DNA from: Candidatus Heimdallarchaeota archaeon
GTDB lineage: Archaea; Asgardarchaeota; Heimdallarchaeia; Heimdallarchaeales; Kariarchaeaceae
Assembly: GCA_015523565.1 (NCBI GenBank)
Contig: WAKA01000193.1
Span: 1,153-65,152 of the forward strand
Direction of reading: 5' to 3'
DNA length: 64,000 nt
The position numbers were made by a program, and so were the translations under genes. The notes under the pieces are model-generated. The model worked only from the letters and a program-made list of their open reading frames with translations. It did not search any database and had not been told where the DNA came from. Shown here one piece after another: positions 5,187 to 56,104 of the stretch. How positions within the stretch are numbered: position 1 is the stretch's first letter; the number at the start of each line of letters is the position of its first letter.

Positions 5187-5284
5187 TTAAATAAAAGACC
5201 TTATTTAATATTCATTTGAAAATCCGCAATTTCGTTGAAAGAATTTCTTTCTCGGGAACAATATTGCAGATACTCTTAACAATA

Positions 5285-6889: not shown

Positions 6890-6910
6890 ACAACGTCATT
6901 TTCCTTGTTT

Positions 6911-7342: not shown

Positions 7343-7388
7343 ACCCCATATGATATCAATATCATGAAAAACATTTTGATTGGGGAGA

Positions 7389-8102: not shown

Positions 8103-10057
8103 TGTGTACCCTCCATTTGTTGTATTGAAATAGCACCGTCTCTTACAAGAGAGGCAAGAATTCTTTGGACTTGATGAGTATCCAAGTTGCCAATTGGTTG
8201 TACCAAATGAGATTTGGAGACAAGCCCCTGATTCAAAAGCCAATAATCCAACACAATCCTGTAATTTCGGAAATAAACATATTTGGCAACCATTTCAATT
8301 AAAAATGCAACGAAGAAACCAAGTGACAATAAACTAAGAAAATCAGGAATATCTGAGTCAAAAGGTTCACTATAAAATACCATATAGCTGACATACCCTA
8401 TGGAAACAAGCAATGAAATTAAAGATAAAATGAAGAAAACGCTCAAACGGATTTTTTTGTAATATTTCTTTGAGGCTTGGGGATTGACGCTGAGATGGAC
8501 TGTTGATTGGTCTTGAGAAGAAATTGTAGGATCTGTCGCCATATCTGTTGTGGTGTTGGTAGCCAACCTAGAAATAATATTATTAAAGGCAGGCTTGACT
8601 TTGTGATCACGGAAAATATAGAGAATGATGGCCAATGCTGGTGACAAATAGATACCCATTTCGATAAAAGACCGTATAGGATAGAAATAATAATAATTGG
8701 CGTAAAAGATATCAAAAATCGCAACAATAAGAATGAATAACATAAAAAGGGGAGGTACAAAAACAACAACATTTTTTGCAATGGAACGATATATGTTATC
8801 TTTAGAAATATGACCTACTAGAATATCATAAATTTGAAGAATCCCTATGAAAACAATAAATTGCAAAAGAAAGATCATAAGACCATAATCATAAGCGTCA
8901 AAACCGTAATAAGTATAGAACTGTCCAAATATAAAATGAAAGACCAAAAGGTAATAGAAAGCAATATTGGCTGAGGAGGCGGAATATGATATAGCCTTTA
9001 CAACCAATAGAGTTCCAAAGAAGGAAAGAAAGAAAAAGAAATAGAGAATGGGCATATTGGAAAGATAAAGAGCCGCGGCAATTTCTATAATGAAAAGAAA
9101 TGCAATAAACAGGAGATATACCCTTTCCCAAGTCATTCCATTTTTTAACTTGATATCCCCCTTTTTCCAGATCACTTGGCTTACAACGGTGAAAATTACA
9201 GGAAGCCATCCCATAATTGGAATAGCCACAAACGGTGCATAAAGTGCAATTGCATAGGCCGCAAAAATGTCGACAATATGGAACAAGTATCCAGAAACCA
9301 TTAGTAAGACCAGTTTTTCAATTGATTTCCCTTCATATATCCATGCAACAGCAATTCCCAAAAGTACAGTAATTCCAAATGTAAAGGGATTCTGATCAAA
9401 ATTGACTATGTCACCAAAATCCATTCTAATAGATGCCAAAAACAAAGTGAAATAGAATCCAAAATGGAAAGAGGCAAATAGAATAAGTGATGAAACTGGA
9501 GAGATATTTGAATATCGGTAGATTCCATACGCAGCAATCCCTCCAAACAGTATCCCAGATACAGTAAATTCTACGGAAAAGACCTCATTGAAAACAACAC
9601 TCATAACAAGAAAAATTGCATAAAAGGAAAGAACAATAAATGCAGGGATTTTACGCAGTATTGCACCCCATTGAATTGGATTGGGAGAAGGTGACTGGTA
9701 ATTGGATGTCTCTGCAATTCCGATCACAGCCTCATCCATTGCTTCGCTAGTACTCCCTGTTTCAGCCGTTTTCTTTAACCAATCCAACCGAATTGTCAAA
9801 ACAGGTTCCTTTCTTTCTTTTTCAAAAAGTGCATGGACTGCCTTTTTCCTTACCTTTTGCACAATGTTCCTGACATTATAGGATCCAATCCATTGGTACT
9901 CTTGTTCAATTTTTTGGAAGATCTCCTCTCGGTATCTGGTGAGGATGTCTTCGATTTCCTTTTCATCAGAGATGTCATGTTTTGCCTCCAGCATCTCCTT
10001 CAGATCACGAATGAAATTATGTATGATATTTAGCTCATTTGGAGTCAGACCATTCAT
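8099..10057 (-). CDS. large polytopic membrane protein with DUF1700-like N-terminal domain
   Basis: Trimmed to Met31 (MNGLTPNELNIIHNFIRDLKEMLEAK...), 11 nt after the padR stop. About 120 aa of helical cytoplasmic domain are followed by many TM helices. Confidence 0.6.
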   Translation of the reverse strand: MNGLTPNELNIIHNFIRDLKEMLEAKHDISDEKEIEDILTRYREEIFQKIEQEYQWIGSYNVRNIVQKVRKKAVHALFEKERKEPVLTIRLDWLKKTAETGSTSEAMDEAVIGIAETSNYQSPSPNPIQWGAILRKIPAFIVLSFYAIFLVMSVVFNEVFSVEFTVSGILFGGIAAYGIYRYSNISPVSSLILFASFHFGFYFTLFLASIRMDFGDIVNFDQNPFTFGITVLLGIAVAWIYEGKSIEKLVLLMVSGYLFHIVDIFAAYAIALYAPFVAIPIMGWLPVIFTVVSQVIWKKGDIKLKNGMTWERVYLLFIAFLFIIEIAAALYLSNMPILYFFFFLSFFGTLLVVKAISYSASSANIAFYYLLVFHFIFGQFYTYYGFDAYDYGLMIFLLQFIVFIGILQIYDILVGHISKDNIYRSIAKNVVVFVPPLFMLFILIVAIFDIFYANYYYFYPIRSFIEMGIYLSPALAIILYIFRDHKVKPAFNNIISRLATNTTTDMATDPTISSQDQSTVHLSVNPQASKKYYKKIRLSVFFILSLISLLVSIGYVSYMVFYSEPFDSDIPDFLSLLSLGFFVAFLIEMVAKYVYFRNYRIVLDYWLLNQGLVSKSHLVQPIGNLDTHQVQRILASLVRDGAISIQQMEGTQ

Positions 10058-10067
10058 TTGTGTTTCG

Positions 10068-10439
10068 TTAATTTTGATCACCTCGGTAATGAATGACGTT
10101 TGAGACGGCAACAGAGTATCTGTTCCATAGGTCCAATATTCGACCATAGAATGCCTGTCCTGCCTGATTTAACTTGTAGATTGTCTTTCGCTGGTCATCT
10201 TCAGGCTTGTAGGTTTCTATCAGACCGTCAGACACGTATCTTCTTAGAAGGGGATAGACAGTTCCCAAAGGAACTTCAATGATATGTTCAGTTCTGGTCC
10301 ATATCCTGTCGCAAATTTCCTTGCCATGAAGATCGCTTTCGAATAAGACAGCACAAACCAAGAGTTGAACCACACCTCTCCTGATTTCGGTTTCCCAATT
10401 TGTTATCAGCTTCTCTTCAATCATGAGTTCACCCTTCAT
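10068..10439 (-). CDS. PadR family transcriptional regulator
   Basis: 123 aa. The region RRGVVQLLVCAVLFESDLHGKEICDRI...VPLGTVYPLLRRYVSDGLIE is the typical PadR wHTH (G.lYp.L.rLe..GlI). Confidence 0.85.
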   Translation of the reverse strand: MKGELMIEEKLITNWETEIRRGVVQLLVCAVLFESDLHGKEICDRIWTRTEHIIEVPLGTVYPLLRRYVSDGLIETYKPEDDQRKTIYKLNQAGQAFYGRILDLWNRYSVAVSNVIHYRGDQN

Positions 10440-10451
10440 GGAACATGATGC

Positions 10452-10494
10452 ATTGCATCACAATACATTGCGTCACAATCAATTGTGTCACAAT
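10452..10494 (-). promoter_or_regulatory. three tandem 13-bp palindromic operator-like sites upstream of padR
   Basis: ATTGCATCACAAT (10452-10464), ATTGCGTCACAAT (10467-10479) and ATTGTGTCACAAT (10482-10494), spaced exactly 15 bp apart between a TATA-like element and the padR ATG. Confidence 0.5.
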
Positions 10495-10510
10495 ATATTT
10501 TTACACAAGA

Positions 10511-10522
10511 GGATATATAAAG
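10511..10522. promoter_or_regulatory. TATA-like element in the padR / hypC divergent intergenic region
   Basis: GGATATATAAAG, near-symmetric and AT-rich, about 75-100 nt from both divergent start codons. Confidence 0.3.
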
Positions 10523-10559
10523 TCTTCCCTTATTTGCACAGATAGTTCTATTGCGTCCT

Positions 10560-10572
10560 ATTGTTCAACAAT
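10560..10572 (+). promoter_or_regulatory. fourth related palindrome on the hypC side
   Basis: ATTGTTCAACAAT is a perfect 6-1-6 palindrome. It is preceded by the half-site-like ATTGCGTCC at 10550-10558. Confidence 0.35.
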
Positions 10573-10625
10573 TTGACATAATTACAAGGGAAAGGTTGAA
10601 TATTTGTGTTGCAGGAAGTTAGTTG

Positions 10626-10841
10626 ATGTGCCTGAGTGTTGTTGCGGAGATTGAGAAAATTTTGGGAAACGGAGAGGCAATAGCATGTCTGAATGGTGTC
10701 AGGAAAACGATAGAGCTAGGGTTGCTGGAGGGCAATGTGAAGGAAGGAGACTGGGTTCTGCTTCATACAGGATATGCAATTTCAAAGGTTGACTATGCAG
10801 AGGCGATGAAAATGCTAAAGGCGATGGCAGATGGAGGATAA
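10626..10841 (+). CDS. hypC: hydrogenase maturation chaperone HypC/HupF
   Basis: Begins MCLSV, giving the essential Cys2 when started at ATG 10626. About 71 aa, ending ...GDWVLLHTGYAISKVDYAEA. Confidence 0.85.
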   Translation: MCLSVVAEIEKILGNGEAIACLNGVRKTIELGLLEGNVKEGDWVLLHTGYAISKVDYAEAMKMLKAMADGG

Positions 10842-11304
10842 TGGAATTGGTTTTCTTGATTTTGAGAAAAAAACATGTTTTCTCTGCATCGGCAATCCCC
10901 TGATACCAAATGATACATTTGGCGTTAGATTTGCAGCAGAGGCAATGAAAGGGATTTGCAATCCCAATTGGACAATTATCAACTGTGAAACGGTGCCTGA
11001 AAATTTTATGGGTAAAGTGATCCAATTGAATCCAGAGATGGTGATATTCATTGACACATTTGATGATGGCAAAATGGGAGAAGACCTATGGATTACAAAA
11101 GTAGAAAATGTCAAGGATATTTCCTTTGGAACGCATAAAACGTCAATTCAACAGCTATGGCAATATATTTCAAACTTCTGCCATGCAGAGGGCTGGTTCA
11201 TAGGTATGAGAAAGTTTGAGGATATCCAAGAAGAGAGAATACAACAAATTGTAGGGGATTTAGTGTACAAAATAAAGCATTTTCGGAAAAAATCCCAGAA
11301 TTAG
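10831..11304 (+). CDS. hycI: [NiFe] hydrogenase maturation endopeptidase (HycI/HyaD family)
   Basis: CIGNPLIPNDTFG resembles the GN....DD..G motif. About 157 aa. Overlaps hypC by 11 nt and precedes the hydrogenase structural genes. Confidence 0.75.
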   Translation: MEDNGIGFLDFEKKTCFLCIGNPLIPNDTFGVRFAAEAMKGICNPNWTIINCETVPENFMGKVIQLNPEMVIFIDTFDDGKMGEDLWITKVENVKDISFGTHKTSIQQLWQYISNFCHAEGWFIGMRKFEDIQEERIQQIVGDLVYKIKHFRKKSQN

Positions 11305-11374
11305 TTACAAAAACATACGATAATATAAAAAAAGAGCATTTGAATTATATTAGAGGATCGATAAATATTAAACA

Positions 11375-11737
11375 ATGAACGAATTTTACATTGAATCGTT
11401 CGTACAGCTTTTCTGGGTTGTTGTCATAATTACAGCCATCATGATTGTTTTTTACGTAATTTTTGGGATGATACAGGAGAAGGGAAAGGAAACTCCAATG
11501 AAAAAAGCCCCCTATTCTGGAGGGAAAGGGGTAGAGACAAGGGCGACATTTTTCAAGGCAACTTTTTTCCAATATGCCATTTATTTTTTGATTTTTGACG
11601 TGGTTGCTTTCATTACTGCCTTGGCAACTTTTGTGTCTGACAAAAGCAAGGAGCATGTATTTTATGCCGCATTGTATCTATTTCTGGTGTTGATACTGTT
11701 TTTGATATTGCCAAAACAGGAGAGTGAGATAATTTGA
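11375..11737 (+). CDS. NuoA/ND3-like membrane subunit of the hydrogenase complex
   Basis: 120 aa, 3 TM. PYSGGKG and FLIFDVVAF sit at the positions of the NuoA YECG and FDVE motifs. Confidence 0.6.
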   Translation: MNEFYIESFVQLFWVVVIITAIMIVFYVIFGMIQEKGKETPMKKAPYSGGKGVETRATFFKATFFQYAIYFLIFDVVAFITALATFVSDKSKEHVFYAALYLFLVLILFLILPKQESEII

Positions 11738-12207
11738 TGCAGGAAGTTGAAACCAAACCCTCAGGGGTTACAAGATGGTTGCAAAGTTTGAGAAACTGGG
11801 CAAGGAAACGGTCGTTATGGTTATTGCACATGAATACAGGTTCATGCAATGGGTGTGACATTGAGATATTGGCGGCACTGACGTCACGACTGGATGCGGA
11901 AAGATTTGGGGTAAAGTTGGTTGGCTCACCTCGACATGCAGATATTATGATGTGTACAGGGGCTGTTACACTGACAATGGTTGATGCATTGAGGAAAACA
12001 TACGAACAAATACCTGAACCGAAATTTGTTGTTGTAGTGGGGTCATGCGGCTCTACTGGAGGGGTTTACAAAGGGGGCTACAATACTTTCGATGGGGTTG
12101 ACAAAATAATTCCAGTTGATTTGTATATCCCGGGTTGCCCACCCAAACCTGAAGCGATAATAATGGGCGTTGCAAAACTGATTGAAAAAATGGAGGAGGA
12201 AAGGTAA
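11734..12207 (+). CDS. NuoB-like [4Fe-4S] small subunit (group 4 hydrogenase small subunit)
   Basis: GSCNGCDIE, VVGSCGSTGG and IPGCPPKPEAI supply the four Cys of the proximal cluster. Confidence 0.9.
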   Translation: MMQEVETKPSGVTRWLQSLRNWARKRSLWLLHMNTGSCNGCDIEILAALTSRLDAERFGVKLVGSPRHADIMMCTGAVTLTMVDALRKTYEQIPEPKFVVVVGSCGSTGGVYKGGYNTFDGVDKIIPVDLYIPGCPPKPEAIIMGVAKLIEKMEEER

Positions 12208-12635
12208 TGACTTTAGAAGTTCCTGAAGAGGTTGTTGAATCAAAGGAGCAGATGAAAAGTGGTGAGACACTTTATCATTTGAAGAGTCCTAGTTGCAGAA
12301 TGGTGGTAAAAAGGTGGATCGATCTTGGAAAGGATGTGCATTTAAGTTCCTTGGTCGGGATGGACCAAGAAGATAGCATAGAAGTTCTCTACTATTTCAT
12401 GGATAGATTAGACAAAGAGAAGTTGCTTCTTTCCATCAGACTCAAGAGGGAGATGCCAAAAACGGAGAGCATTTCTGATTTGATTGGAAGTAGAATATAT
12501 GAGGCAGAGGTCACAGAGATGTTTGGTGTGAAATTTGAGGGTAACGAAATGACAAGGGCATTTCTACCTGAAAATTGGATTGGTGGATATCCGTTGCGGA
12601 AGGATTGGAAAAAGGAGGATTACGAGAATGAATGA
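12207..12635 (+). CDS. NuoC-like (30 kDa) subunit
   Basis: 142 aa between the NuoB and NuoD homologues. The stretch EAEVTEMFGVKFEGN...R.FLPENW is typical of NuoC/EchD. Confidence 0.75.
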   Translation: MTLEVPEEVVESKEQMKSGETLYHLKSPSCRMVVKRWIDLGKDVHLSSLVGMDQEDSIEVLYYFMDRLDKEKLLLSIRLKREMPKTESISDLIGSRIYEAEVTEMFGVKFEGNEMTRAFLPENWIGGYPLRKDWKKEDYENE

Positions 12636-13809
12636 AGAACAGACATCCTTCAATATCGGTCCGCAACATCCTGCCCTCAAGGAGCCAGAAACATTTCGCG
12701 TGATTGTAGAGGGGGAGAGGGTTGTGAAGGCAGAAGCCATTTTAGGGCATACACACCGAGGAATAGAAAAAATGGCAGAATCCAGGGATTATAACAAGAC
12801 ATTATATCTTGCCGAAAGGATTTGCGGTATTTGCAGTTTTGCGCACAATGCAAACTTTGCAAGAGCTGTTGAGTTTGTTGCGGATGTGAAGGTTCCAAAA
12901 AGGGCAGAATTCCTTAGGGTTTTGGTTGCAGAACTGGAGAGACTGCATTCACATTTATTGTGGTTAGGGGTCTTGGCACACGAAATTGGATTTGATACAT
13001 TTTACATTTTAGTATGGAATGATCGCGAAACCATTATGGATCTCTTGGAGACCTTGACGGGAAATCGAGTAAATTATGGGATGAATAGGATAGGGGGAGT
13101 AAGGTTTGATCTAAACGATGAGATCAAAAAAATCATGCGTGACAAGATAGAAGAATTCAAACCAAGATTGGAAAAAATCAGGGATGTTGTATTGAATAGC
13201 AAAACCATTATTGCTAGAACAAATGGAGTTGGACGGATCTCCAAGGATTTGGCACGGAAAACATGTGTCACGGGTCCCACCGCAAGGTCTTCAGGGATAG
13301 ATTGGGATTTGAGAAGGGATGAGCCATATTTCATATATGAGCAATTGGACTTCAATGTTCCAATAAGCGATAGGGGAGATGTATATTCAAAAATTATTCT
13401 AAGAGTCAAGGAATTGTTTGAATCTATAAAAATCATAGAACAGGTTCTGGATCTCATACCAAGTGGGAAAATATTCCAGGATGTCAGGGGCAGGTTTGAA
13501 GGGAAGGCAGTTTCACGTATTGAAGCACCCAGAGGTGAGAATTTTCATTATGTTGAATTTAGGAAATCAAAAAATCCATACAGATTGAAGGTTAGGGCAC
13601 CAACATACGCAAATGTTGTCTCTTCAGTCGAGGCATTGGTGGGTCACCATATTGCAGACATCCCTGTAATCGTCGCAGCCAATGACCCATGCTTTTCCTG
13701 TACAGACAGGACTCTTATCATTGACAGGGATAAGGGGAGATATCAAATCATGAGTGCAAGGGATCTAAGGAAACTTAGTGTGGAAACCACAAAGGAGGTA
13801 ATGCAATGA
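12628..13809 (+). CDS. [NiFe] hydrogenase large subunit, group 4 (NuoD homologue with intact Ni-Fe ligands)
   Basis: Start trimmed to MNEEQTSFNIGPQHPA, an ATGAATGA overlap with nuoC. N-terminal ligand motif RICGICSFAH and C-terminal DPCFSCTDR, followed by a 32-aa tail of the kind removed by the maturation protease. Confidence 0.9.
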   Translation: MNEEQTSFNIGPQHPALKEPETFRVIVEGERVVKAEAILGHTHRGIEKMAESRDYNKTLYLAERICGICSFAHNANFARAVEFVADVKVPKRAEFLRVLVAELERLHSHLLWLGVLAHEIGFDTFYILVWNDRETIMDLLETLTGNRVNYGMNRIGGVRFDLNDEIKKIMRDKIEEFKPRLEKIRDVVLNSKTIIARTNGVGRISKDLARKTCVTGPTARSSGIDWDLRRDEPYFIYEQLDFNVPISDRGDVYSKIILRVKELFESIKIIEQVLDLIPSGKIFQDVRGRFEGKAVSRIEAPRGENFHYVEFRKSKNPYRLKVRAPTYANVVSSVEALVGHHIADIPVIVAANDPCFSCTDRTLIIDRDKGRYQIMSARDLRKLSVETTKEVMQ

Positions 13810-14813
13810 TACAGGATATTGCTCTTTTTCTTTTTCAGACAATAGTGTTTCCAGGTGTGTTTTTCATTGTAGTATTGGCTTTTGGCTCTAATTGGATGTA
13901 CAGGAAATTCTATGCTAGACTCCAAAGGAGGATTGGTCCAGAAAGTGCAGGGATTTTCGGCATTCTCCAAGGATTTGCAGATTACCTGAAAACAGCGACA
14001 AAAGAGGATATAATCCCTTACGGGGCAAATCAAGTCATCTTCAAGTATCTTCCTGTTATTGCACCTGTACCAGTGGTTGTCGGCATGTTCTTTATACCGA
14101 TAATTGACACAAAAGGATTCATTTCATCCCCTGGAGACATTTATGCAATAGTGTTCATATTGACAATAGTTACAACAACTGAAATCATATTGGGATGGGC
14201 AAGTGGATCAAAATTTGCCTTGATTGGCTCCAGCAGGTCAGGCATGCAATTGGTGTCTTTTGGCATCCCATTCATTTTTTCCATGTTATATGCCATAATC
14301 AAGGCAAAGAGTTTTAGTCTTGAAGACATAGTCCTGTCCCAAACTGGAACAAAGCTGAAATTCCTGCCGAATTGGAACCTTTTTGGATTGGGAGGGATTG
14401 CATTTTTGATTTTTATCATTTGTGCATTGGCAGAGTTAGAGAAGCCCCCTTTTGACACTCCTGAAGCGGAAACTGAAATTGCTGGAGGATGGACATTAGA
14501 ATACTCAGGAAGAGGGTACGCATATATTTTGTTATTGGAGGATCTTAAGATGGTTTTTGTCATTTCCCTTGGGGTTGTCCTATTTCTTGGAGGACCATTG
14601 GGACCGACATTTGGTTTGGGAGAGCCGTGGATCGCCGTTCTTTATTTCATTTATTTCTCCCTGAAATATTTTGCAGTTCTATTGATTTTAACATTGATCT
14701 CTTCCAGTTTGGCACGGATGAAGATACGGCATATTGTTTTCGGGTCATGGACATATCTTGCACCGTTGGCAATTGCATCCATTATTTTAACAATACTTTT
14801 GGAAGGAGGCTAA
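13806..14813 (+). CDS. NuoH/ND1-like membrane subunit
   Basis: 335 aa polytopic protein. RRIGPESAGIFGILQGFADYLK resembles the NuoH R.GPN..G..G.LQ..AD..K motif. Confidence 0.85.
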   Translation: MIQDIALFLFQTIVFPGVFFIVVLAFGSNWMYRKFYARLQRRIGPESAGIFGILQGFADYLKTATKEDIIPYGANQVIFKYLPVIAPVPVVVGMFFIPIIDTKGFISSPGDIYAIVFILTIVTTTEIILGWASGSKFALIGSSRSGMQLVSFGIPFIFSMLYAIIKAKSFSLEDIVLSQTGTKLKFLPNWNLFGLGGIAFLIFIICALAELEKPPFDTPEAETEIAGGWTLEYSGRGYAYILLLEDLKMVFVISLGVVLFLGGPLGPTFGLGEPWIAVLYFIYFSLKYFAVLLILTLISSSLARMKIRHIVFGSWTYLAPLAIASIILTILLEGG

Positions 14814-14819
14814 AAAGGA

Positions 14820-15191
14820 ATGCTAATAGTTGAATTAATAAAGAACTTGTTCAGGAAACCAGAAACCGTAAGGTATCCATACGAGACAAAAGGATTGAAC
14901 TTTCCAGAGAGATTAAGGGCAATGCATGTAATAGACCAGGATTCATGTATTGGATGTTCAAAATGTGCGAGAGCTTGCCCTGCATTTGTCATACAGATGG
15001 TTCCATTGACAGAGGAGGAATTGGCAAAGAGGAATGAAAAAATAAAGAGGAAAAGGGTAAAACCAGTTATTGATTTGACAGCCTGCATTTTTTGTGGAGT
15101 CTGTGAAGAAGTCTGTCCTACAGATTGCCTGAATTTGACAAACCAATTGGTAATGCCATCGGGGAGGAAAGAAGAGTTGGAGGTAGGGTAA
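14820..15191 (+). CDS. NuoI-like 2x[4Fe-4S] ferredoxin subunit
   Basis: Two CxxCxxCxxxCP motifs: CIGCSKCARACP and CIFCGVCEEVCP. Confidence 0.85.
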   Translation: MLIVELIKNLFRKPETVRYPYETKGLNFPERLRAMHVIDQDSCIGCSKCARACPAFVIQMVPLTEEELAKRNEKIKRKRVKPVIDLTACIFCGVCEEVCPTDCLNLTNQLVMPSGRKEELEVG

Positions 15192-15195
15192 GACA

Positions 15196-15456
15196 ATGGA
15201 ATCATCGTTTTTAGAGCTTGCCCTGCTTATTGTCCTGATAATTTCATTATTGCTTGCATCAGAGCTAGAGAAACTCTATGAAGTGGCAATGGTCTTCATC
15301 GTGTTTATGACCGCCCTTTCAGCCATTTATTGGATCATGGGATCACCGATACTTGCATTGTTCCAGTTGACCATTTACGCAGGAACAACTGGGGTGATTC
15401 TCTTTGCAGTATTGGGTGTTTTTCCAGGAAGACAGACTGTGGAGGAGTTACCTTGA
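15196..15456 (+). CDS. NuoJ-like subunit, N-terminal part (J1)
   Basis: 86 aa, 3 TM. LALFQLTIYAGTTGVILFAVL resembles the NuoJ A..Q..VYAGAI.VLF motif. Confidence 0.65.
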   Translation: MESSFLELALLIVLIISLLLASELEKLYEVAMVFIVFMTALSAIYWIMGSPILALFQLTIYAGTTGVILFAVLGVFPGRQTVEELP

Positions 15457-15731
15457 AATTCCAGCGGTCATTTGCACAAATATCTCTCGGATTTTTCTTT
15501 TTTGCCATGCTTTATCCAATTCTGACAAGGGACATGAACGTGCTTGCCCCAAAAGAGGGAAACTCAGACATTGCAAATATACTTTGGCTTAACAGACTGT
15601 CAGAAGTGTATTTGCAGGTCTTCTATTTAGGAGCTTCCATTATTGCGAGTTTGTTGGTAATCCGCAAGCCCCCATCATATTCTGAGATAGAAATTGAGAG
15701 ATTTTCCATTGAGGAGGAGAGAATTCAATGA
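15453..15731 (+). CDS. NuoJ-like subunit, C-terminal part (J2)
   Basis: TTG start overlaps the J1 stop as TTGA (15453-15456). It is preceded by GGAGGAG at 15441-15447 with a 5-nt spacer. The product has 2 TM plus a charged tail. Confidence 0.5.
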   Translation: MKFQRSFAQISLGFFFFAMLYPILTRDMNVLAPKEGNSDIANILWLNRLSEVYLQVFYLGASIIASLLVIRKPPSYSEIEIERFSIEEERIQ

Positions 15732-16033
15732 TTGGATTGGTCACCTACCATATTTTTGCCATTATCATTTTGGGATTGGGAATTTATAACATCATGCTTT
15801 CTAAAAATATCGTTAAAGGAATTCTGATTATTGAAATGATGGTTGCAACAGCCAACCTCATTCTTTTTAGGATTTCTTTGGAAAAGGGAGATGACGGTTT
15901 GGGAAGAGCAGTAATAATTACGTCAATAGTAATTGGGGCTGGGCTTTCTGCATTCATGCTTTCGATGGCAGTCAAGGTGTATCGTGAATTCGGCACGCTC
16001 AACCCAGAGGAAGTGACAAGACAGGAGGAATAA
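15728..16033 (+). CDS. NuoK/ND4L-like membrane subunit
   Basis: 101 aa, 3 TM, with a membrane Glu in LIIEMMVATANL. ATGA overlap with the preceding gene and GAGGAGGAG upstream. Confidence 0.8.
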   Translation: MIGLVTYHIFAIIILGLGIYNIMLSKNIVKGILIIEMMVATANLILFRISLEKGDDGLGRAVIITSIVIGAGLSAFMLSMAVKVYREFGTLNPEEVTRQEE

Positions 16034-16034
16034 A

Positions 16035-17747
16035 ATGTCAGACATTATGCTGCTTTCACCATTGTTGACGGGGGGTTTGATTTACATGCTTTCATTTTGG
16101 AAAACAAGTGACAAAAGAAAGGAAATGGTTGCAAGTTCACTTGCCATGCTTGGTTCCTTGTTTTCATTGGTTTTTGCCCTCATGGGGTTGCAAAAACGAG
16201 GGGTGGAGGATTCAATTTTGGGCTCTTGGATTAAAATCGGGACGGTTGACATTAAGTTACAGTATTATTTTGATGGATGGTCCATTACGTTAACAGTTGT
16301 TTCAAGTCTGTTGACATTGCTTATCATCATTTTCTCAAAATATTATTTCGGAGTCAATTCCCATTCTGCCGTTTACTATGGAATGATCCAAATATTTCTT
16401 TTTGGCATGCTTTTGCTGGTAGTGTCAGATAACCTAGTGTTTACCTTTTTTGGATGGGAAATAGTTGGGATTTGCTCATGGTTTTTAATTGGCCTTTATC
16501 ATTATGAAGGAGGTGAAAAAGGAGAAAAGGCAATATTATCAGGTCAAAAAGCAATTCTTGTGACAGGCTTGGCGGATATAGGATTTTTATTGGCATTGGC
16601 AATTGTGGGATCCGATTCCTTTTCCATTTCGAATATGGAGAATATGCCTGCAATTGCAGCAATTGGATTGACGATTGCCGCGTTTGGAAAATCTGCGCAG
16701 TTTCCATTTCATGTATGGATCTCAAGTACAGATAGAAAAGACATTGATGCTATGCAAGGACCTACCACAGTTTCAGCATTAATCCATGCGGCAACCATGG
16801 TAAATGCAGGGATTTATTTGGTCAGTAGGGTTATGGAAATCACCACTACAGTTTCGGAATTGGTGTTGTGGGTTGGAATAGTGTCAACCATTTTTGCAGG
16901 GATTTCTGCACTTGGGACAATTGATTTGAAAAGAGTTCTTGCCTATTCAACCATAAGCCAGCTAGGCTTCATGTTTATTGCACTGGGAAGTGGTGCAAGC
17001 TTTCTTGCATTATGGCACCTATTGAACCATGCATTCTTCAAGGCATTGTTGTTTCTAATTGCAGGGTTCTTGATCCATAGGTACAAATCAAGAAACTTAG
17101 AGGATTTAAAAGGAACAGTACGTGAAACATGGCTTAAAGCAAGCTTGTTCACTGGGATTTTTGCATTGGCAGGCGTTCCCTTTTTTTCAGGATTCTTTTC
17201 TAAAGAAATGATTTTGGAGGCAGTACATGGAAAGAGTACAATTGCATTTTATTTTTCATTGTTTGGATCCATTTTGACGAGTATATACTCATTCAGATTG
17301 TTGGCAGTGTTGAATGGATCAAAAGAGAAAAAACCGTCAAATATCATTCCAAAAGCGATTATTTTGGCATTAACTGCATTGGTGATTTTGTCTTCAGCTT
17401 CGTATTATTTTTTGGGTCTTTTCAATTGGGATACGGTATATCCCGTAGTGGAATTGAATGGGAATCTTGGCATTGGAATTATTGTATCGGTTATGGGAAT
17501 GGCACTGGGATATTATTTTGAACAATGGTATCCAAAATTGCCCTTGTTTGTGCGGGTTCCTGTTCAAGACGCTTTTTTTGTGGATGATTTGTTGACAGCG
17601 ACAGGAAAATCACTGACAATCACAATGTCAAGGTTTGCTAGAACATTGAATTCTCAAACAAGCTTTTGGAACATGTTCCAGTTTTCAATTGTGATAAGCG
17701 TTGTTTCAATTGGCTTGTACTATTTGCAATACGGAGGCGGATTATAG
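16035..17747 (+). CDS. NuoL/ND5-like antiporter-type subunit
   Basis: 570 aa. WEIVGICSWFLIG, SAQFPFHVW and HAATMVNAGIYLVSR are typical of NuoL/MrpA. A C-terminal extension ends in one more TM segment. Confidence 0.85.
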   Translation: MSDIMLLSPLLTGGLIYMLSFWKTSDKRKEMVASSLAMLGSLFSLVFALMGLQKRGVEDSILGSWIKIGTVDIKLQYYFDGWSITLTVVSSLLTLLIIIFSKYYFGVNSHSAVYYGMIQIFLFGMLLLVVSDNLVFTFFGWEIVGICSWFLIGLYHYEGGEKGEKAILSGQKAILVTGLADIGFLLALAIVGSDSFSISNMENMPAIAAIGLTIAAFGKSAQFPFHVWISSTDRKDIDAMQGPTTVSALIHAATMVNAGIYLVSRVMEITTTVSELVLWVGIVSTIFAGISALGTIDLKRVLAYSTISQLGFMFIALGSGASFLALWHLLNHAFFKALLFLIAGFLIHRYKSRNLEDLKGTVRETWLKASLFTGIFALAGVPFFSGFFSKEMILEAVHGKSTIAFYFSLFGSILTSIYSFRLLAVLNGSKEKKPSNIIPKAIILALTALVILSSASYYFLGLFNWDTVYPVVELNGNLGIGIIVSVMGMALGYYFEQWYPKLPLFVRVPVQDAFFVDDLLTATGKSLTITMSRFARTLNSQTSFWNMFQFSIVISVVSIGLYYLQYGGGL

Positions 17748-19261
17748 TGGACTTGCTTTTTCCAATCAGTATACTCTATAATGCACTTTGGCTTTTAATT
17801 CTCCCGATACTGCTCCATATAGAGGCAAGATTGGACAGATATGGTCTTAAGAGCATTTTTTCGATCATATGGGCGTTGGGATTGAATTTCCTGTTGGGAT
17901 ATGAATTGATGAACTTTGAAGGGGATCAAACATTCTCCCCCAATTTTCAGGGAACCATGAAAAGAACAAGCATTGAATTCAAAATGACAAGAACTATTTA
18001 TGGGCTTGTTTTTCTTGTCTCAATTCTTTTCACCGCAATCATGTTTTATAGCTGGAGATATATGCGATGGGAGACATTGCTTGATGATGGAGGGGCTTAT
18101 AAGCTGTATTACTATTTTTTGATGTTTACCTCACTTTTGGGCTTTCAGGTCGTTTTGTATTCAAATGACGCATTTTTGTTGTTTTTTGGATGGGAACTGA
18201 TGGTTGTGCCAGGATATGCATTGATTTCAATTAGACCGACGCGACATGCTGCGAGAGCAGGAATTTCATACGCAATGATAAGTAGCATTGGATCTATTTT
18301 TCTTTTATATGGAGTTGCGTTGATTTACCAATTAACTGGCACATTCAACCTGACAATAGCATCGTCAGAAATATCTGCCATGCAATTGGAAACAGACATT
18401 TCCCCTATTCTCGCCGTCGTCACCATCATTGTCGGGATTGGTGTTACCGCAGGACTAATTGGGCTTCAAACATGGATTCCAGATTCATATAGTGCTGCAA
18501 CAAGTCCCGTTGGAGCTTTTGTTTCAGGAACTTTCACCTTGGCCGCCCTGATCGGATATAAGAAATTGATTTTCGATCTTTTCCCTTTTGTGAATTATAG
18601 CTGGATTTTCATTCTTGGAGGATTGGCGACTATGACTATCGGAAATTTCGGGGGCATCGTGCAAAGGGATGTCAGAAGAATATTGGCCTATTCATCAATT
18701 GGACAGAGGGGTTATATCTTATTTGGATTGGGGATAATTGCAGGAGGGATTTACAAAGGTGTGGACTTTTTCTCCTTGAAAGACCCCTTTATAGTCGTCA
18801 TCATTTTTGGCATTGCATTTACGTTTCTTGAGGGAAATCTCTTTCTTATCATTGGAAAGGTACTTTATGTTTCCCATTTCAAGAGTCGGACAAGAGACAT
18901 TGTTAAGTTGAGGGGAAGTCTTGCAAAGACACCCCATACAGCATTGATGATGATTATCAGTTCTTTCGGTCTTGCAGGCTTGCCACCTACAATCGGATTC
19001 AGTTCAAAACTGCTGTTGCTTTACGCGGTTGGGAAATCGGGAGTTCAATGGTGGATTATAACCATTTTTTTGGGAAACTCAGTTGTTGCCTTGATCTATT
19101 ACCTTAAACTGATCAGGTTTCTTCTTTTCACAAAACGAGAAGATCCATTGGACATGTCTTTGACACCCAACTCGGTAAACATAGCCATTCTTTTTGTCTC
19201 AACCATATGTGTTGTACTTGGGTTGATGCCAAATATTATTATTTTCTTGTTGCAGGGATGA
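17747..19261 (+). CDS. NuoM/NuoN-like antiporter-type subunit
   Basis: GTG start at 17747, overlapping the upstream TAG by 1 nt, with GGAGGCGG 6 nt upstream. FFGWELMVVPGY and LQTWIPDSY are antiporter-like motifs. Confidence 0.8.
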   Translation: MDLLFPISILYNALWLLILPILLHIEARLDRYGLKSIFSIIWALGLNFLLGYELMNFEGDQTFSPNFQGTMKRTSIEFKMTRTIYGLVFLVSILFTAIMFYSWRYMRWETLLDDGGAYKLYYYFLMFTSLLGFQVVLYSNDAFLLFFGWELMVVPGYALISIRPTRHAARAGISYAMISSIGSIFLLYGVALIYQLTGTFNLTIASSEISAMQLETDISPILAVVTIIVGIGVTAGLIGLQTWIPDSYSAATSPVGAFVSGTFTLAALIGYKKLIFDLFPFVNYSWIFILGGLATMTIGNFGGIVQRDVRRILAYSSIGQRGYILFGLGIIAGGIYKGVDFFSLKDPFIVVIIFGIAFTFLEGNLFLIIGKVLYVSHFKSRTRDIVKLRGSLAKTPHTALMMIISSFGLAGLPPTIGFSSKLLLLYAVGKSGVQWWIITIFLGNSVVALIYYLKLIRFLLFTKREDPLDMSLTPNSVNIAILFVSTICVVLGLMPNIIIFLLQG

Positions 19262-19264
19262 AAA

Positions 19265-20362
19265 GTGCAAAGCTACAAAGAATATCTGAGCAAATTGGAA
19301 ACAAGGGGCAGATCAGTCATTTCAAAGATCAAGGCACATTGTGAAAGATTGGATCAACAGGTCAACATCATGCATGTTTGTGGTACCCATGAGGCCACTG
19401 TTTCACGTGCGGGCATCCGTTCCTTGCTTCCAGATAATCTACGGATTATTTCAGGACCTGGATGCCCTGTGTGTGTTTGCCCTGCCGAACACATAACATT
19501 GGCAAAGGAATTGGCAAAACAGGGACACATAATCGCCACATTCGGAGACATGTTCAAAGTGCCAGATACAAGCTTGAAATCGCTTGCACATTTGAAAGCA
19601 GAGGGACATGACATAAGAACAGTTTATTCAGTCATGGATGCGGTCAATATAGCTCGCAACAATCCTGATAAAAAAGTAATCTGGCTAGGGGTGGGATTTG
19701 AAACTACAGCACCAATGACAGCATATGAGATCCTTAAGCAACCACCAACCAATTTTTATGTACTCTCTGATTTCAGGCTGGTCCCGCCTGCCCTGCATCT
19801 GCTTTTGGGAGACCCAGAACATGAGTTGGCAGGAATTATTCTACCAGGACACGTAACAACAGTGATGGGGTTGGAGGAGTATGAGGAATTCCCAAATAAG
19901 TATAAAATACCCATGGCGGTCGCAGGATTTGAACCTGTTGAATTTCTTTATGGGCTTGAAACACTTCTGCGAATGATCATTGAGAAAGACTATTCTGTGA
20001 AAAACTCCTATTCAAAAGTGGTTCGGTATGAAGGAAATAAGAAGGCGAAAGAAGTCATGAGAAAAGTGTTCAAGGTTGTTGATGCAAAATGGAGAGGAAT
20101 AGGGATGATTGAAAAATCAGGATATGAATTGCGTGAAGAATTCAAAAGTTATAATGCCAGATCATTGATTACCTTTGATATCAACCTGGAATATGATTTG
20201 CCAAAAGGATGCAAATGTGGAGGGGTCATCTTGGGAAAAGTTGAGCCTGAGAGGTGTCCCCATTTTTTGAGGAGATGCACACCAGAAACAGCAATTGGTC
20301 CATGCATGGTCTCAGATGAAGGAACGTGCAGGATAAGAGCCACGTTCAGGATGGTGAAATGA
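19265..20362 (+). CDS. hypD: hydrogenase maturation protein HypD
   Basis: CGTHE, GPGCPVCV, GFETTAP and PGHV motifs, plus C-terminal Cys-rich CKCGGV...C. Confidence 0.9.
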   Translation: MQSYKEYLSKLETRGRSVISKIKAHCERLDQQVNIMHVCGTHEATVSRAGIRSLLPDNLRIISGPGCPVCVCPAEHITLAKELAKQGHIIATFGDMFKVPDTSLKSLAHLKAEGHDIRTVYSVMDAVNIARNNPDKKVIWLGVGFETTAPMTAYEILKQPPTNFYVLSDFRLVPPALHLLLGDPEHELAGIILPGHVTTVMGLEEYEEFPNKYKIPMAVAGFEPVEFLYGLETLLRMIIEKDYSVKNSYSKVVRYEGNKKAKEVMRKVFKVVDAKWRGIGMIEKSGYELREEFKSYNARSLITFDINLEYDLPKGCKCGGVILGKVEPERCPHFLRRCTPETAIGPCMVSDEGTCRIRATFRMVK

Positions 20363-20688
20363 TGCACGAACTGCATAGGGCCGAAAAATTGAAGCAGGAT
20401 TTGGAGAAACGGGGAATTGAGAAGAAGGTTGAGGTGCATTTGTCCCATATTGAAAAAACCTTGATAACATTGGAAGAAGTAAGTGAATGCTTTGCCCTTG
20501 TCACGAAAGGAACAAAACTGGAAGGGTCTAAATTGATTTTTGAGGCAATTCCGACATTGCTGGTCTGTGAAAGATGCAAGACAACCTATAATGAGCCAAT
20601 AATGGAATGCAGGAATTGTGGATCATATGAACTACATTTGAATGAAGAAGATGAGTTGATAATACAGGAAATAAGGGAATTAAGCTGA
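20362..20688 (+). CDS. hypA: hydrogenase nickel incorporation protein HypA
   Basis: Starts MHEL, the canonical HypA N-terminus. Zn motif CERCK...CRNCG. The start overlaps or abuts the hypD stop; the alternative ATG at 20359 is equally possible. Confidence 0.85.
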   Translation: MHELHRAEKLKQDLEKRGIEKKVEVHLSHIEKTLITLEEVSECFALVTKGTKLEGSKLIFEAIPTLLVCERCKTTYNEPIMECRNCGSYELHLNEEDELIIQEIRELS

Positions 20689-21717
20689 TCAGCAAACGCG
20701 AGGAATGGGTTCCCCATATGGCTTGTCCAGTATGCGTGTTCCGCCAATAGAGGTTTTGACATGGACTTCCCCTTTTCCTTTCACAACTGAGCCGATCAGC
20801 GCGGCGTTCTTTCCAAGTTCTGTGTTTGTCAGCAATTTAAGTATATCATCAGTGGCATTTTTGTCACAGACTATGACAACCTTTCCTTCACTGGATATCT
20901 CCAACGGTTCCAATCCAAGAATGTCACAGATTGCTTTAGTCCTTTCATCTATGGGGACATGGTTTTCATAAATCTGCAGGGTACAGGATGATTTGGATGC
21001 AATGTCATTCAATGCAGAAGCAAGACCCCCCCTCGTTATATCCTTCATGCATTTGACACCAGGATGTGTAATCACATTTTGGAAATGGGGCCAGACAGGG
21101 CTGACATCAGATTGAAGCGATGTGTCAAGGTCAATACCTTCCCTCAATGCCATTAGAGCCGCACCATGATCACCTATGGTTCCAGAAACTATAACATTGT
21201 CCCCAATCTCTGCGCGGCTGTCTTTGAGAGGAGTATCAACAAGAAGTGCACCAATACCGGCAGTTGTCAGGACAATCTCGTTGACGGCTCCTTTGGGCAT
21301 TACTTTTGTATCTCCTGCAATAATACGGACACCTGTTTCTCTCGCACGTTTTCCAATAGTTTCGCATATTGTTTTTAATGCATCCATCCTAAATCCTTCT
21401 TCAATAATCATTCCAAGGGTCAGAAAGAGGGGCTTTGCCCCCATTACTGTGAGATCATTGACAGTTCCTGCAATAGCAAGATCACCTATGTTCCCTCCTG
21501 GAAAAAAGACGGGATTGACGGTATGCCCATCGGTGGTAACAACAATTTTTTCACTAGGAAATACAAGAACAGCAGAATCATCCATGTCCTTTGGTCCGAC
21601 AATGTCGTGGTCTGAATTTTCAATGCCTATTGTCCTACCAATGAAGGAAACAAGCAGATCCATTCTTTTCCCTCCACCACCCATGCTTAAGTCAACCATT
21701 TCAGGAAGACGATCCAT
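20689..21717 (-). CDS. hypE: hydrogenase maturation protein HypE
   Basis: AIR-synthase-like fold, MGGGG near the N-terminus, C-terminal ...PIPRVC (the HypE PR[IV]C end). The start is uncertain: the ORF is open to a TTG at 21843, with ATGs at 21798 and 21717. I chose the one giving about 342 aa. Confidence 0.85.
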   Translation of the reverse strand: MDRLPEMVDLSMGGGGKRMDLLVSFIGRTIGIENSDHDIVGPKDMDDSAVLVFPSEKIVVTTDGHTVNPVFFPGGNIGDLAIAGTVNDLTVMGAKPLFLTLGMIIEEGFRMDALKTICETIGKRARETGVRIIAGDTKVMPKGAVNEIVLTTAGIGALLVDTPLKDSRAEIGDNVIVSGTIGDHGAALMALREGIDLDTSLQSDVSPVWPHFQNVITHPGVKCMKDITRGGLASALNDIASKSSCTLQIYENHVPIDERTKAICDILGLEPLEISSEGKVVIVCDKNATDDILKLLTNTELGKNAALIGSVVKGKGEVHVKTSIGGTRILDKPYGEPIPRVC

Positions 21718-21992
21718 AAGAGAAATATGTTTTTTGATTATTTTAGTCAGTGGTTTCCTTTTCAAATTCAATCCAAATGCTTGTTCCGTAAGTGCCATTC
21801 GTTCATGGGATAGAAATCGTCTCACCAATCCTTCAGAATTCAATGAAGTTCAGTGGTTGAATTAGTTTGAACTAGACGACGGGGTTACTAAAGCACATTT
21901 GCAAAGTTCATTTGGGTTCTCATTCATACGCCATAATTCCCTTCCAATAACCCATAGGTTCTTAAATATCAAAAGGCAAAATATGGTAACGA

Positions 21993-22571
21993 ATGGCGGA
22001 AGTTGTAGAAAGGGTCTCCGAACTTGAGAGGATGATGAAGGATCTCGTTTACATCCAAAGACAGACAGAGATGAAGCTTGCTTCCTTTATCGATGAAATG
22101 AAAGAATTTAAAGACTTCACCGAGAAAAACATCACCTCCCTGAACAAAAAATGGGGTGATCTTGCAAATCGATTGGGAACCATTGCAGAAGATCTGGTTT
22201 TACCATGCTTTCCAGAGACCGTTGAGAAATACCTCGGTATGAAAGATCCAGAAACTATCCATTCGAACACCATTGTTAGAAGGAACGGAAAGGTGAAGGA
22301 ATTTGACATCATTATCATCTATTCGGACGCTGTCATTCTTAATGAGGTAAAAGCCACTGCGACGGAAAAGTCCATAGAAACGTTCGTTAACTTTGTTCAG
22401 GAAGGGATCTTCTTTGAGTATTTTCCGTTTCTGAAAGGGAAAAGCTTTCTGCCTTTCCTGTCGGCCATGAAATTCACGGAGGAGGCATTGGACATCTTGA
22501 CCCAAAATGGCATCTATGCCGTCACGCCCTACCCCAACATGAAAATCCTTAACATTTCAGAATTGCAATGA
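21993..22571 (+). CDS. hypothetical protein, coiled-coil N-terminus plus PD-(D/E)XK-like nuclease fold
   Basis: 192 aa. EFDIIIIYSDAVILNEVK fits a D...E.K restriction-endonuclease-like core. A TATA-like TTCTTAAATATC lies about 30 nt upstream. Confidence 0.45.
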   Translation: MAEVVERVSELERMMKDLVYIQRQTEMKLASFIDEMKEFKDFTEKNITSLNKKWGDLANRLGTIAEDLVLPCFPETVEKYLGMKDPETIHSNTIVRRNGKVKEFDIIIIYSDAVILNEVKATATEKSIETFVNFVQEGIFFEYFPFLKGKSFLPFLSAMKFTEEALDILTQNGIYAVTPYPNMKILNISELQ

Positions 22572-27142: not shown

Positions 27143-27224
27143 TGACCGCAAATCATTCCTTTTTTTCCTTTGGTTCTAAAAAAATTGGTGGCATGGTTTT
27201 GAATGTTATAATAAGTGTTGAATT

Positions 27225-56069: not shown

Positions 56070-56104
56070 TAACCTTTCCAAAGGCGATACAGATAGGAGG
56101 CATC

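Follow-up and report, generated by a model that had tools for sequence, protein, structure and literature searches.

A contiguous Heimdallarchaeal operon predicted to encode a group 4 [NiFe] hydrogenase with an MBH-like catalytic module and a shortened complex I-type membrane arm

Enzymes that combine a [NiFe] hydrogenase with complex I-like membrane subunits have already been described from Asgard archaea. Distinct Asgard group 4 clades were noted by Liu et al. 2020, and Valentin-Alvarado et al. 2024 (Nat Commun, PMC11291895) described complexes with a cytosolic part that resembles the one in membrane-bound hydrogenase (MBH), complex I-like membrane chains, a lateral helix on the L subunit (HL helix) and two antiporters, the large subunit having relatives in Odin-, Heimdall- and Hermodarchaeia. 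Appler et al. 2024 (bioRxiv 10.1101/2024.07.04.601786) defined groups 4j-4q, of which 4j, 4m, 4p and 4q occur in Heimdallarchaeia, and reported a NuoBCDI arm, the absence of NuoEFG, a NuoD whose NiFe site is active and a lack of quinone access; their main text gives no subunit-level detail on NuoA, NuoJ or NuoL. AlphaFold2 (AF2)-multimer models of related Asgard clusters have complex I-like architecture, an active NiFe site and no quinone access (PMC11291895; bioRxiv 10.1101/2024.07.04.601786). The subject of this work is an operon at 10626-20688 of a 64-kb stretch of DNA, referred to as the window (contig WAKA01000193.1, assembly GCA_015523565.1, Candidatus Heimdallarchaeota archaeon). We conclude, with a probability of roughly 0.8, that it encodes a ferredoxin-dependent, ion-translocating group 4 [NiFe] hydrogenase with an MBH-like catalytic module and a shortened complex I-type membrane part. 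The locus is a further example of a published kind of enzyme, not a discovery, and the one fresh lead it offers lies in the rewiring of the proximal membrane arm.

Open reading frame (ORF) calls with Pfam and NCBIfam matches showed 15 genes in an uninterrupted + strand run, in the order hypC, hycI-like, nuoA, nuoB, nuoC, nuoD, nuoH, nuoI, nuoJ (as two genes), nuoK, nuoL, nuoN, hypD and hypA. Adjacent genes overlap by 1-11 nt or are separated by 1-6 nt, the sole exception being a 70-nt AT-rich gap 5′ of nuoA. The genes hypE and hypF adjoin the operon downstream on the opposite strand, and the structural genes and six maturation genes are all contiguous within ~14 kb. A preliminary description of the window, made from the letters alone, had claimed a complex I gene order without E/F/G, bracketed by hypC-hycI and hypD-hypA with hypE and hypF adjacent; the genes, motifs and coordinates of this [NiFe] hydrogenase are all present in the Pfam, NCBIfam and PDB analyses, and the locus is of group 4 type with NuoA, H, J, K, L and N homologues. 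Among the operon ORFs there is no NuoE, NuoF, NuoG or Mrp-type small subunit, NADH, F420 and formate modules are absent from the locus, and no ferredoxin-producing oxidoreductase lies beside the operon. The rest of the 64-kb window contains no ATP synthase or Hdr, and neither hypB nor a second nuo cluster, both of which the preliminary description had proposed to look for; these may be encoded elsewhere in the genome.

The host is an Asgard archaeon of the Heimdallarchaeota, as the preliminary description had allowed. The protein is encoded in a Heimdallarchaeota metagenome-assembled genome, the nearest species-representative loci are titled Candidatus Heimdallarchaeota archaeon, and the window encodes a Ras/Roc-family small GTPase (35692-36243, - strand; Pfam Ras E = 8.9e-44), a eukaryote-like signature typical of Asgard genomes. 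An identical large subunit with identical neighbours was found on contig JALSYK010000056.1 of GCA_027071915.1 and in the Logan assembly of SRR10312503.

The large subunit (NuoD/MbhL-like, 393 aa; 12628-13809, + strand; Pfam Complex1_49kDa E = 1.5e-70, and NiFeSe_Hases) truly starts at Met17 of the ORF (position 12628) and carries the ligand motifs RICGICSFAH (Cys66, Cys69) and DPCFSCTDR (Cys355, Cys358). Misplacement of these cysteines relative to the Ni-Fe ligands had been named beforehand as the check that could overturn the assignment; in PDB alignments both motifs match the ligand motifs of MbhL and HycE column for column, whereas Nqo4 has RMDYLHSFAH and DPVMGDVDR at these columns. Both motifs are retained in 120/120 of the best large-subunit homologues. 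The best solved match was P. furiosus MbhL (6cfw_L, E = 2.3e-94), ahead of E. coli HycE (7z0s_E, 5.5e-80) and T. thermophilus Nqo4 (5.3e-63), and amino acid identity was 45% to MbhL, 36% to HycE, 31% to E. coli NuoD and 47-50% to members of an MBH-like family that is very large and spans bacteria and archaea. As the catalytic subunit is not especially near NuoD, it is more apt to speak of a hydrogenase module carried by a complex I-type arm than of a NuoD to which nickel 'still' binds.

The other cytosolic subunits agree with this assignment. The NuoB/MbhJ-like small subunit (11737-12207, + strand; Pfam Oxidored_q6 E = 2.9e-31) retains the four cluster cysteines that had been claimed for it, in GSCNGC (GSCNGCDIE), GSCGSTGG and PGCPP, aligned to HycG/HyfI; it has the CxxC of HycG/HyfI, in contrast to the tandem CC of E. 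coli NuoB, and its best PDB match was MbhJ (1.7e-48), followed by HycG (3.2e-40) and complex I PSST (~1e-38). The nuoC/30-kDa-like gene (142 aa; 12207-12635, + strand) matched Pfam Complex1_30kDa with E = 3.1e-18. The NuoI-like 2x[4Fe-4S] ferredoxin-type subunit (14820-15191, + strand; Pfam Fer4 families; TIGR01971 NuoI E = 4.2e-28) has two CxxCxxCxxxCP motifs with eight cysteines (CIGCSKCARACP, CIFCGVCEEVCP), as read in translation. The sequence features of group 4 are all present, namely the Ni-Fe motifs, a one-cluster CxxC small subunit, a NuoH-like anchor, a NuoI-like subunit and antiporter-like subunits.

HycI cleaves the C-terminal tail of the hydrogenase large subunit once nickel has been inserted. 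In the window, the tail after Arg361 is 32 residues long, equal to that of E. coli HycE and HyfG, and the operon includes a hycI-like endopeptidase gene (10831-11304, + strand; TIGR00142 E = 2.9e-14, under the equivalog cut-off; Pfam HycI E = 1.6e-4, 22 bits against a cut-off of 23), the product of which matched E. coli HycI by BLASTP (E = 1e-9), the alignment including the GN..D, D and H motifs (metal-binding Asp/Asp/His). This protease is predicted to cleave the large-subunit tail, in keeping with the cleavable tail proposed earlier. The remaining maturation genes are hypC, a maturation chaperone (10626-10841, + strand; Pfam HupF_HypC E = 2.5e-18; TIGR00074 E = 1.2e-14) beginning MCLS with a Cys directly after Met; hypD (19265-20362, + strand; Pfam HypD E = 1e-132; TIGR00075 E = 7.9e-127); hypA (20359-20688, + strand; Pfam HypA E = 9.4e-15; TIGR00100 E = 2.9e-12) with a CxxC...CxxC zinc site, for which a start at 20362 would yield an N-terminal MHE motif; hypE, convergent with the operon (20689-21843, - strand; TIGR02124 E = 9e-114; Pfam AIRS and AIRS_C); and hypF (22677-24983, - strand; TIGR00143 E = 3.2e-197; five HypF domains in Pfam).

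The small membrane subunits have the transmembrane (TM) helix counts of complex I (A 3, H 8, J 3+2 and K 3). The nuoA/ND3-like gene (11375-11737, + strand; Pfam Oxidored_q4 E = 3.4e-6) gave weak but full-length PDB matches, to NdhC/NuoA/ND3 only (E = 1.3e-3 to 6e-3), and its PYSGGK loop and FDV motif align with E. coli PFESGI and FDVE, the Asp being kept and the next Glu changed to Val. The nuoH/ND1-like membrane anchor (13806-14813, + strand; Pfam NADHdh E = 2e-75) matched NdhA (3.8e-33) and E. coli NuoH (1.9e-31) well ahead of MbhM (1.2e-20) and HycD (1.9e-11), and the loop PFDTPEAETEIAGGWTLEYSG is conserved. At the motif of this subunit that contains Gly153, E. coli NuoH (E157) and most homologues examined have S(Y/F)E, and HycD/HyfC have VE; Glu occupies the Gly153 position in 15/15 homologues from outside the clade described below (NuoH, HycD, HyfC, and bacterial and archaeal MBH-like proteins), and Gly in 5/5 clade members. 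The nuoK/ND4L-like gene (15728-16033, + strand; Pfam Oxidored_q2 E = 1e-19) encodes a subunit that retains the TM2 Glu; it has no counterpart of the TM3 Glu found in E. coli NuoK, and neither do the other archaeal relatives aligned.

The preliminary description wrote J once in its gene order and implied a full NuoJ, and this has to be corrected: nuoJ is two genes, the first (TM1-3, MbhD-like; 15196-15456, + strand; Pfam Oxidored_q3 E = 7.9e-4 and MbhD E = 4.2e-3, both under cut-off) encoding an 86-residue 3-TM protein that ends in a stop codon, and the second (TM4-5; ~15453-15731, + strand; no Pfam/NCBIfam match; conserved in the related loci L003, L004, L005 and L024) encoding a 2-TM protein in another frame, with a start likely at TTG 15453, overlapping the preceding stop, or at GTG 15540, as databases call it. 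A programmed frameshift or a sequencing error was considered as the source of the split and ruled out, since the stop after TM3 and the separate start recur in all four related loci, making five in total, three of which have an ATG start. The joined J1+J2 sequence aligns colinearly with E. coli NuoJ and with the NuoJ of Ca. Heimdallarchaeum aukensis, an unsplit protein of 171 residues, and the break falls in the TM3-TM4 loop. A single-sequence PDB search with J1+J2 was marginal (E = 0.047), and a five-sequence profile matched NuoJ chains across both halves (8e9g_J, E = 1.3e-3) and MbsD in the first half (E = 0.044); as the NuoJ profile match is still weak, the assignment also leans on this colinearity and on the TM counts. 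The split is the MbhD/MbhE style of encoding. It had further been held that classical group 4 enzymes lack clear NuoA and full NuoJ homologues; MBH does have counterparts, with MbhI, MbhD/E and a short HL helix (PMC8165549; PMC8679088).

The L subunit (nuoL/ND5-type antiporter-like, 570 aa; 16035-17747, + strand; Proton_antipo_M and Proton_antipo_N) matched ND5/NuoL chains in the PDB with E ~1e-57, followed by MrpA (7.5e-37) and MbhH (8.5e-26), and every canonical charged residue is there: E142 (GWE142), K219, H251, H328, H332, K336 and K390. Judged by its sequence, it is of genuine NuoL/ND5 type. An AF2 model built from 98 sequences (predicted local distance difference test, pLDDT, 91.6; predicted template modelling score, pTM, 0.90) continues beyond the 14-helix core with TM15 (437-460), a hydrophobic helix (476-493), an amphipathic helix (513-538) and TM16 (543-566), and in a Foldseek search the top 50 matches were all complex I/NDH L chains, full-length, with TMq ~0.8; the high root-mean-square deviation of these matches would be expected from a differently placed C-terminus in the model. 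The C-terminal extension claimed for NuoL is thus borne out in the model by an amphipathic helix and TM16, with the reservation that the helix is short; at ~26 residues it could be long enough to span one neighbouring subunit, not two. Relative to mitochondrial ND5, NuoL has a 7-residue insertion (TDRKDID) at ~229-238, right before the conserved AMQGPT, and the consensus SSxDxxDIDAMQGPT is common to the 98 aligned, largely metagenomic NuoL homologues, of which the named ones are mostly Heimdallarchaeota, with some bacteria. By their closest matches, the catalytic subunits D and B are the most MBH-like and H, A and L the most complex I/NDH-like, and the membrane part is probably arranged like a shortened complex I.

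The second antiporter-like subunit (nuoN/MrpD-type, 504 aa; 17747-19261, + strand; Proton_antipo_M) is placed about equally close to MbhH (1.6e-30) and NuoN (6.1e-30) by the PDB sequence search, and by fold it matched MrpD, NuoN, MbhH and MbsH equally (TM-score ~0.81-0.85, Foldseek). Its AF2 model (pLDDT 94.7) has the canonical fold with broken TM7 and TM12, and the TM5 Glu (E150) and TM12 Lys (K421) are retained. The TM7 Lys position is Thr234, and the TM11 His/His/Lys positions are Phe354/Phe358/Glu362. TM8 has Thr/Leu at ~263-264; as this column shifts by one between the small and large alignments, the claim is limited to there being no Lys in the TM8 segment. The altered positions coincide with those assigned to the proton path of MbhH, the residues of which are E143/K225, K256, H346, H350, K354 and K409 (PMC8679088). 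A mid-membrane Arg321 (TM10) occurs in 6/6 clade sequences, and a charged residue at this position in 0/136 other relatives; Glu362 (TM11) likewise occurs in 6/6 clade sequences and in 0/136 others, which have Lys, Asn or Thr, and Asp in 2. The six clade sequences are 41-64% identical pairwise, bar one near-duplicate pair at 96%. The subunit is isolated, with only two others of >50% identity among 1.84 billion cluster representatives (50%-identity clusters) and the next match at E = 1.1e-47 and 29% identity. We read the N-like subunit as rewired and apparently still under selection, rather than decayed. The claim of a full complex I membrane arm therefore stands for the presence of A, H, J, K, L and N homologues, and fails in that J is split, the antiporters are two, the HL helix is short and proximal charges are missing or moved.

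Large-subunit identity to the nearest relatives was 78% (L003), 68% (L004), 68% (L005) and 64% (L024), and ≤50% beyond these; L003 and L004 are titled Candidatus Heimdallarchaeota archaeon, and L005 and L024 only 'archaeon'. As far as their contigs reach, all four share the order hypC-(hycI)-A-B-C-D-H-I-J1-J2-K-L-N-hypD. In the large-subunit tree the locus falls in a distinct 16-member clade with a bootstrap of 100/100, the named members of which are Heimdallarchaeota or unclassified archaeal metagenome-assembled genomes (MAGs); this is a neighbour-joining tree with few labelled references, and is no substitute for HydDB or maximum-likelihood classification. Among distant relatives (44-48% identity), NiFe-competent clusters with NuoA, J and K and several antiporter-like genes are widespread, as in Ca. 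Asgardarchaeum abyssi (J-K-L-N-N-A-B-C-D-H-I) and a Peptococcaceae MAG (hypFCDE-L-L-N-...-A-B-C-D-H-I-hycI). The loci of Methanosuratincola and other Methanomethylicia (L012-L021, e.g. L015 8730-18297) resemble the window in the order A-B-C-D-H-I-J(split)-K, in a large subunit 46-48% identical and in both CxxC pairs of the D subunit (RICGICNVAQ, DPCFSCAAR); they differ in having three antiporter-like genes (N-L-N), an L of ~684 aa, a large-subunit tail of 7-11 residues and a retained NuoH Glu, and no HycI-like gene was found in the stretches examined. Ca. Heimdallarchaeum aukensis (CP084166.1, L030) likewise encodes subunits A, B, C, NiFe-D, H, I, J, K, L and N with HycI and HypD/E/F, its L is 43% identical, and in its N-like subunit, too, Thr stands where the TM7 Lys would be. 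Its genes at 4133-20343 are, in contrast to the window, arranged as hypE-hypF, H-A-J-K-L-N, orf257 and hycI, followed by a C-D-I-B unit encoded on the other strand and by hypD; NuoJ comes from a single gene, NuoH retains its Glu and the N-like subunit its TM8 and TM11 Lys. As its large subunit is only 39% identical, it represents a different Heimdall subgroup.

Similar comparisons can be made with the characterised and published systems. The P. furiosus MBH (6CFW, group 4d) shares with the window the best match for D and B, ferredoxin-to-H2 chemistry (predicted for the window) and a NuoJ equivalent made as two proteins; it differs in a single MrpD-type MbhH rotated 180 degrees relative to NuoN, in having MbhI and no ND3-type NuoA, and in the Mrp Na+ module MbhA-G (PMC8165549; PMC8679088). 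The window adds a NuoL-type subunit and, between hypC and hypD, has no Mrp small subunits (MbhA, B, C, F) or MbhI. Respiratory complex I and the 11-subunit NDH-1 share the order A-B-C-D-H-I-J-K-L-N, the closest matches to H, A and L, the TM counts and the canonical NuoL residues, whereas the window has a Ni-Fe site in place of a quinone site, the NuoB CxxC, no NuoM, a split NuoJ, a short HL helix, Gly in NuoH for E. coli E157, an N-like subunit without the TM7/TM8 Lys, and two antiporter-like subunits rather than three. E. coli Hyc/Hyf (group 4a) has the Ni-Fe motifs, a 32-residue tail and a HycI-type protease in common with the window, and differs in a fused NuoC-D large subunit (35-36% identity), other gene orders, a formate dehydrogenase partner and the lack of NuoA. 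Ehr (energy-converting hydrogenase-related) complexes lose the Ni-Fe Cys ligands, whereas the large subunit of the window keeps all four.

The published Asgard enzymes are of the same kind as that of the window. The Heimdallarchaeia groups 4j/4m/4p/4q (bioRxiv 10.1101/2024.07.04.601786) share the host, a NuoBCDI arm without NuoEFG, a NiFe-competent NuoD and predicted ferredoxin-to-H2 chemistry, and the Freyarchaeia/Atabeyarchaeia group 4 enzymes (PMC11291895) share an Asgard host, an MBH-like cytosolic module and complex I-like L/M/K-type membrane chains. For the latter, synteny with ATP synthase, Hdr and a group 3c hydrogenase and a full-length HL helix are described (PMC11291895), whereas in the window the operon is flanked by hyp genes, a PadR regulator and a trp operon, and the helix that might serve as HL has only ~26 residues. 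Of the features of the Asgard complex I-like group 4 enzymes, the window has NuoBCDI without NuoEFG, a NiFe-competent NuoD and fewer than three antiporter-like subunits (L and N-like). The novelty suggested in the preliminary description, which depended on no described subgroup having the same synteny, is essentially lost, as the same kind of complex is already in print (PMC11291895; bioRxiv 10.1101/2024.07.04.601786). Outside Asgard archaea, Methanosuratincola has the similar order A-B-C-D-H-I-J-K-N-L-N with both CxxC pairs. The main text of these papers was found to mention neither a NuoJ in two parts, nor the change from Glu to Gly in NuoH, nor an Arg/Glu rewiring of the N-like subunit, and a literature search for GCA_027071915, JALSYK, JALWRB and JALTMP returned nothing.

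From the gene content, ligand motifs, folds and residue states observed, we infer the subunit arrangement, the electron donor, the reaction direction and the kind and number of ions moved as follows. Reduced ferredoxin would dock on the NuoI-like subunit with its two [4Fe-4S] clusters, and its electrons would travel by way of the one [4Fe-4S] cluster in the NuoB-like subunit and reach the Ni-Fe site of the NuoD-like large subunit, where H+ would be reduced to H2, probably reversibly. The redox energy would be transmitted through the NuoD/NuoA/NuoH loops to a membrane arm ordered H, A/J1/J2/K, N-like and L-like, in which the L-like subunit would clamp the N-like subunit with its short lateral helix and final TM helix, and the export of H+ (or Na+) would be driven. 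For maturation, HypCDEF would make the Fe(CN)2CO group, HypA would insert Ni with a HypB encoded elsewhere, and the HycI-like protease would cut the 32-residue tail after Arg361.

Several points weigh against this mechanism. The N-like subunit has neither the TM7/TM8 Lys nor the TM11 His/His/Lys, which interrupts the usual charged axis from the redox site to the L pump, and NuoH is without the otherwise invariant membrane Glu (Gly153). A complex I-like arrangement, as opposed to the 180-degree rotated arrangement of MBH, is suggested by the subunit types, the 26-residue C-terminal helix of L is a candidate lateral helix, and hypB is absent from the 64-kb window. Electron transfer from ferredoxin to H+ yields little energy, and three pumping sites would be hard to drive. 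The ferredoxin/H+ couple provides far less energy than NADH/quinone, which makes about one ion per H2 more plausible than three; such a stoichiometry would fit a single canonical pump (L) with a modified connector (N-like). It may tentatively be proposed, at rather low confidence, that the Heimdallarchaeal clade did not inherit the proximal half of its complex I-type charge relay and has a replacement in its stead (NuoH Gly; N-like Arg321/Glu362), with the distal NuoL pump canonical. If H2 formation still drives ion export through L, the clade would offer a natural test of whether long-range coupling depends on the canonical Lys/Glu 'electrostatic wave' or on a different or mechanical link.

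The same residue changes could also be due to a partly vestigial arm, in which the N-like subunit and perhaps the E-channel no longer move ions, and pumping is confined to L or almost lost, so that the arm acts chiefly as a scaffold. This is possible, although doubtful: Gly153 of NuoH replaces a Glu found in 15/15 other NuoH, HycD, HyfC and MBH-like homologues, N-like Thr234, the TM8 Thr/Leu and Phe/Phe/Glu hit residues of the MbhH proton path (PMC8679088), and a weak ferredoxin-to-H+ driving force would fit fewer pumping sites, whereas the substitutions are conserved across clade members just 41-64% identical, the buried Arg321 and Glu362 are clade-specific (each 0/136 elsewhere, with 2 Asp at 362) and look like rewiring under selection, and the N-like fold with broken TM7 and TM12 is predicted with a pLDDT of 94.7. 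Operation of the same complex in reverse, with H2 oxidation and the ion gradient driving ferredoxin reduction for anabolism, as for Eha/Ehb/Ech in methanogens, is an unlikely alternative given that published reconstructions of metabolism in Heimdallarchaeia and other Asgard archaea lean towards H2 evolution driven by ferredoxin (PMC11291895; bioRxiv 10.1101/2024.07.04.601786) and that, among solved structures, the one nearest to the catalytic subunits is MBH, which evolves H2. In its favour are that MbhH elements could support reverse conduction (PMC8679088), that the sequence fixes no direction, and that no ferredoxin-producing oxidoreductase stands beside the operon. Group 4 enzymes are also, in principle, reversible.

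Two further readings concern the kind of enzyme. A classical MBH/Mrp-type (group 4d) hydrogenase that has merely been reordered would account for MbhL and MbhJ as the best solved matches of D and B and for a NuoJ split like MbhD/E, and is nevertheless very improbable, as the operon has no MbhA/B/C/F (MrpE/F/G/B-like) genes, an ND3-type NuoA in place of MbhI, a NuoL/MrpA-type subunit with TM16 besides the MrpD-type one, a NuoH nearer to complex I than to MbhM, and a large subunit in its own 16-sequence clade with 100/100 bootstrap. That the operon encodes a true complex I/Fpo-like reductase of quinone or another acceptor, and no hydrogenase, can scarcely be maintained; the gene order and the best NCBIfam names (NuoB/D/H/I/L/N) point that way, yet four Cys lie at the Ni-Fe ligand positions, where complex I has none, the cleavable tail, dedicated protease and hyp genes are present, NuoB has CxxC rather than tandem CC, and every NCBIfam Nuo equivalog score is under its cut-off. 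The kind of enzyme encoded bears on the origin of complex I from membrane-bound hydrogenases, and on whether the archaeal relatives of eukaryotes produce their own H2; both points have been made before in publications on Asgard complexes of this kind. The locus adds a well-preserved, contiguous example that combines the complex I order with an MBH-like catalytic pair, a split NuoJ and clade-specific NuoH/N-like rewiring, and these details could guide the choice of constructs for expression, cryo-EM and mutagenesis.

Upstream of hypC lies a divergent padR gene (10068-10439, - strand). The 186-nt padR-hypC intergenic region contains three tandem 15-bp direct repeats at 10453-10497 (TTGCATCACAATACA / TTGCGTCACAATCAA / TTGTGTCACAATATA), followed by a TATA-like AT-rich stretch at ~10511-10521; the repeats may be a candidate PadR operator controlling the hydrogenase operon. 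PadR does not adjoin the operon in L003 or L024. The region 7389-10439 (- strand) consists of padR, the gene of a large multi-TM protein without a family assignment (8099-10147) and an ORF weakly matching a HAAS domain (7389-8243), and resembles a PadR-plus-membrane-sensor arrangement.

Between hypE and hypF lies an ORF of 192 residues (21993-22571, + strand) with no Pfam/NCBIfam match; in L003, hypE and hypF are adjacent and this ORF is not between them. Directly downstream of hypF is a complete tryptophan biosynthesis operon, trpE-G-D-C-F-B-A (25173-31571, + strand). Elsewhere in the window, a 166-residue protein (667-1167, - strand) has a borderline match to the exocyst family Sec10_N (E = 3.1e-6, 27.7 bits against a cut-off of 27.4), a further eukaryote-like signature of the kind seen in Asgard genomes, which may be a coiled-coil artefact. 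An 898-residue protein (60104-62800, + strand) has only a partial Hsp70-like ATPase match, and the gene at 53679-56081 (- strand) encodes an 800-residue DUF285-repeat/fibronectin-III protein.

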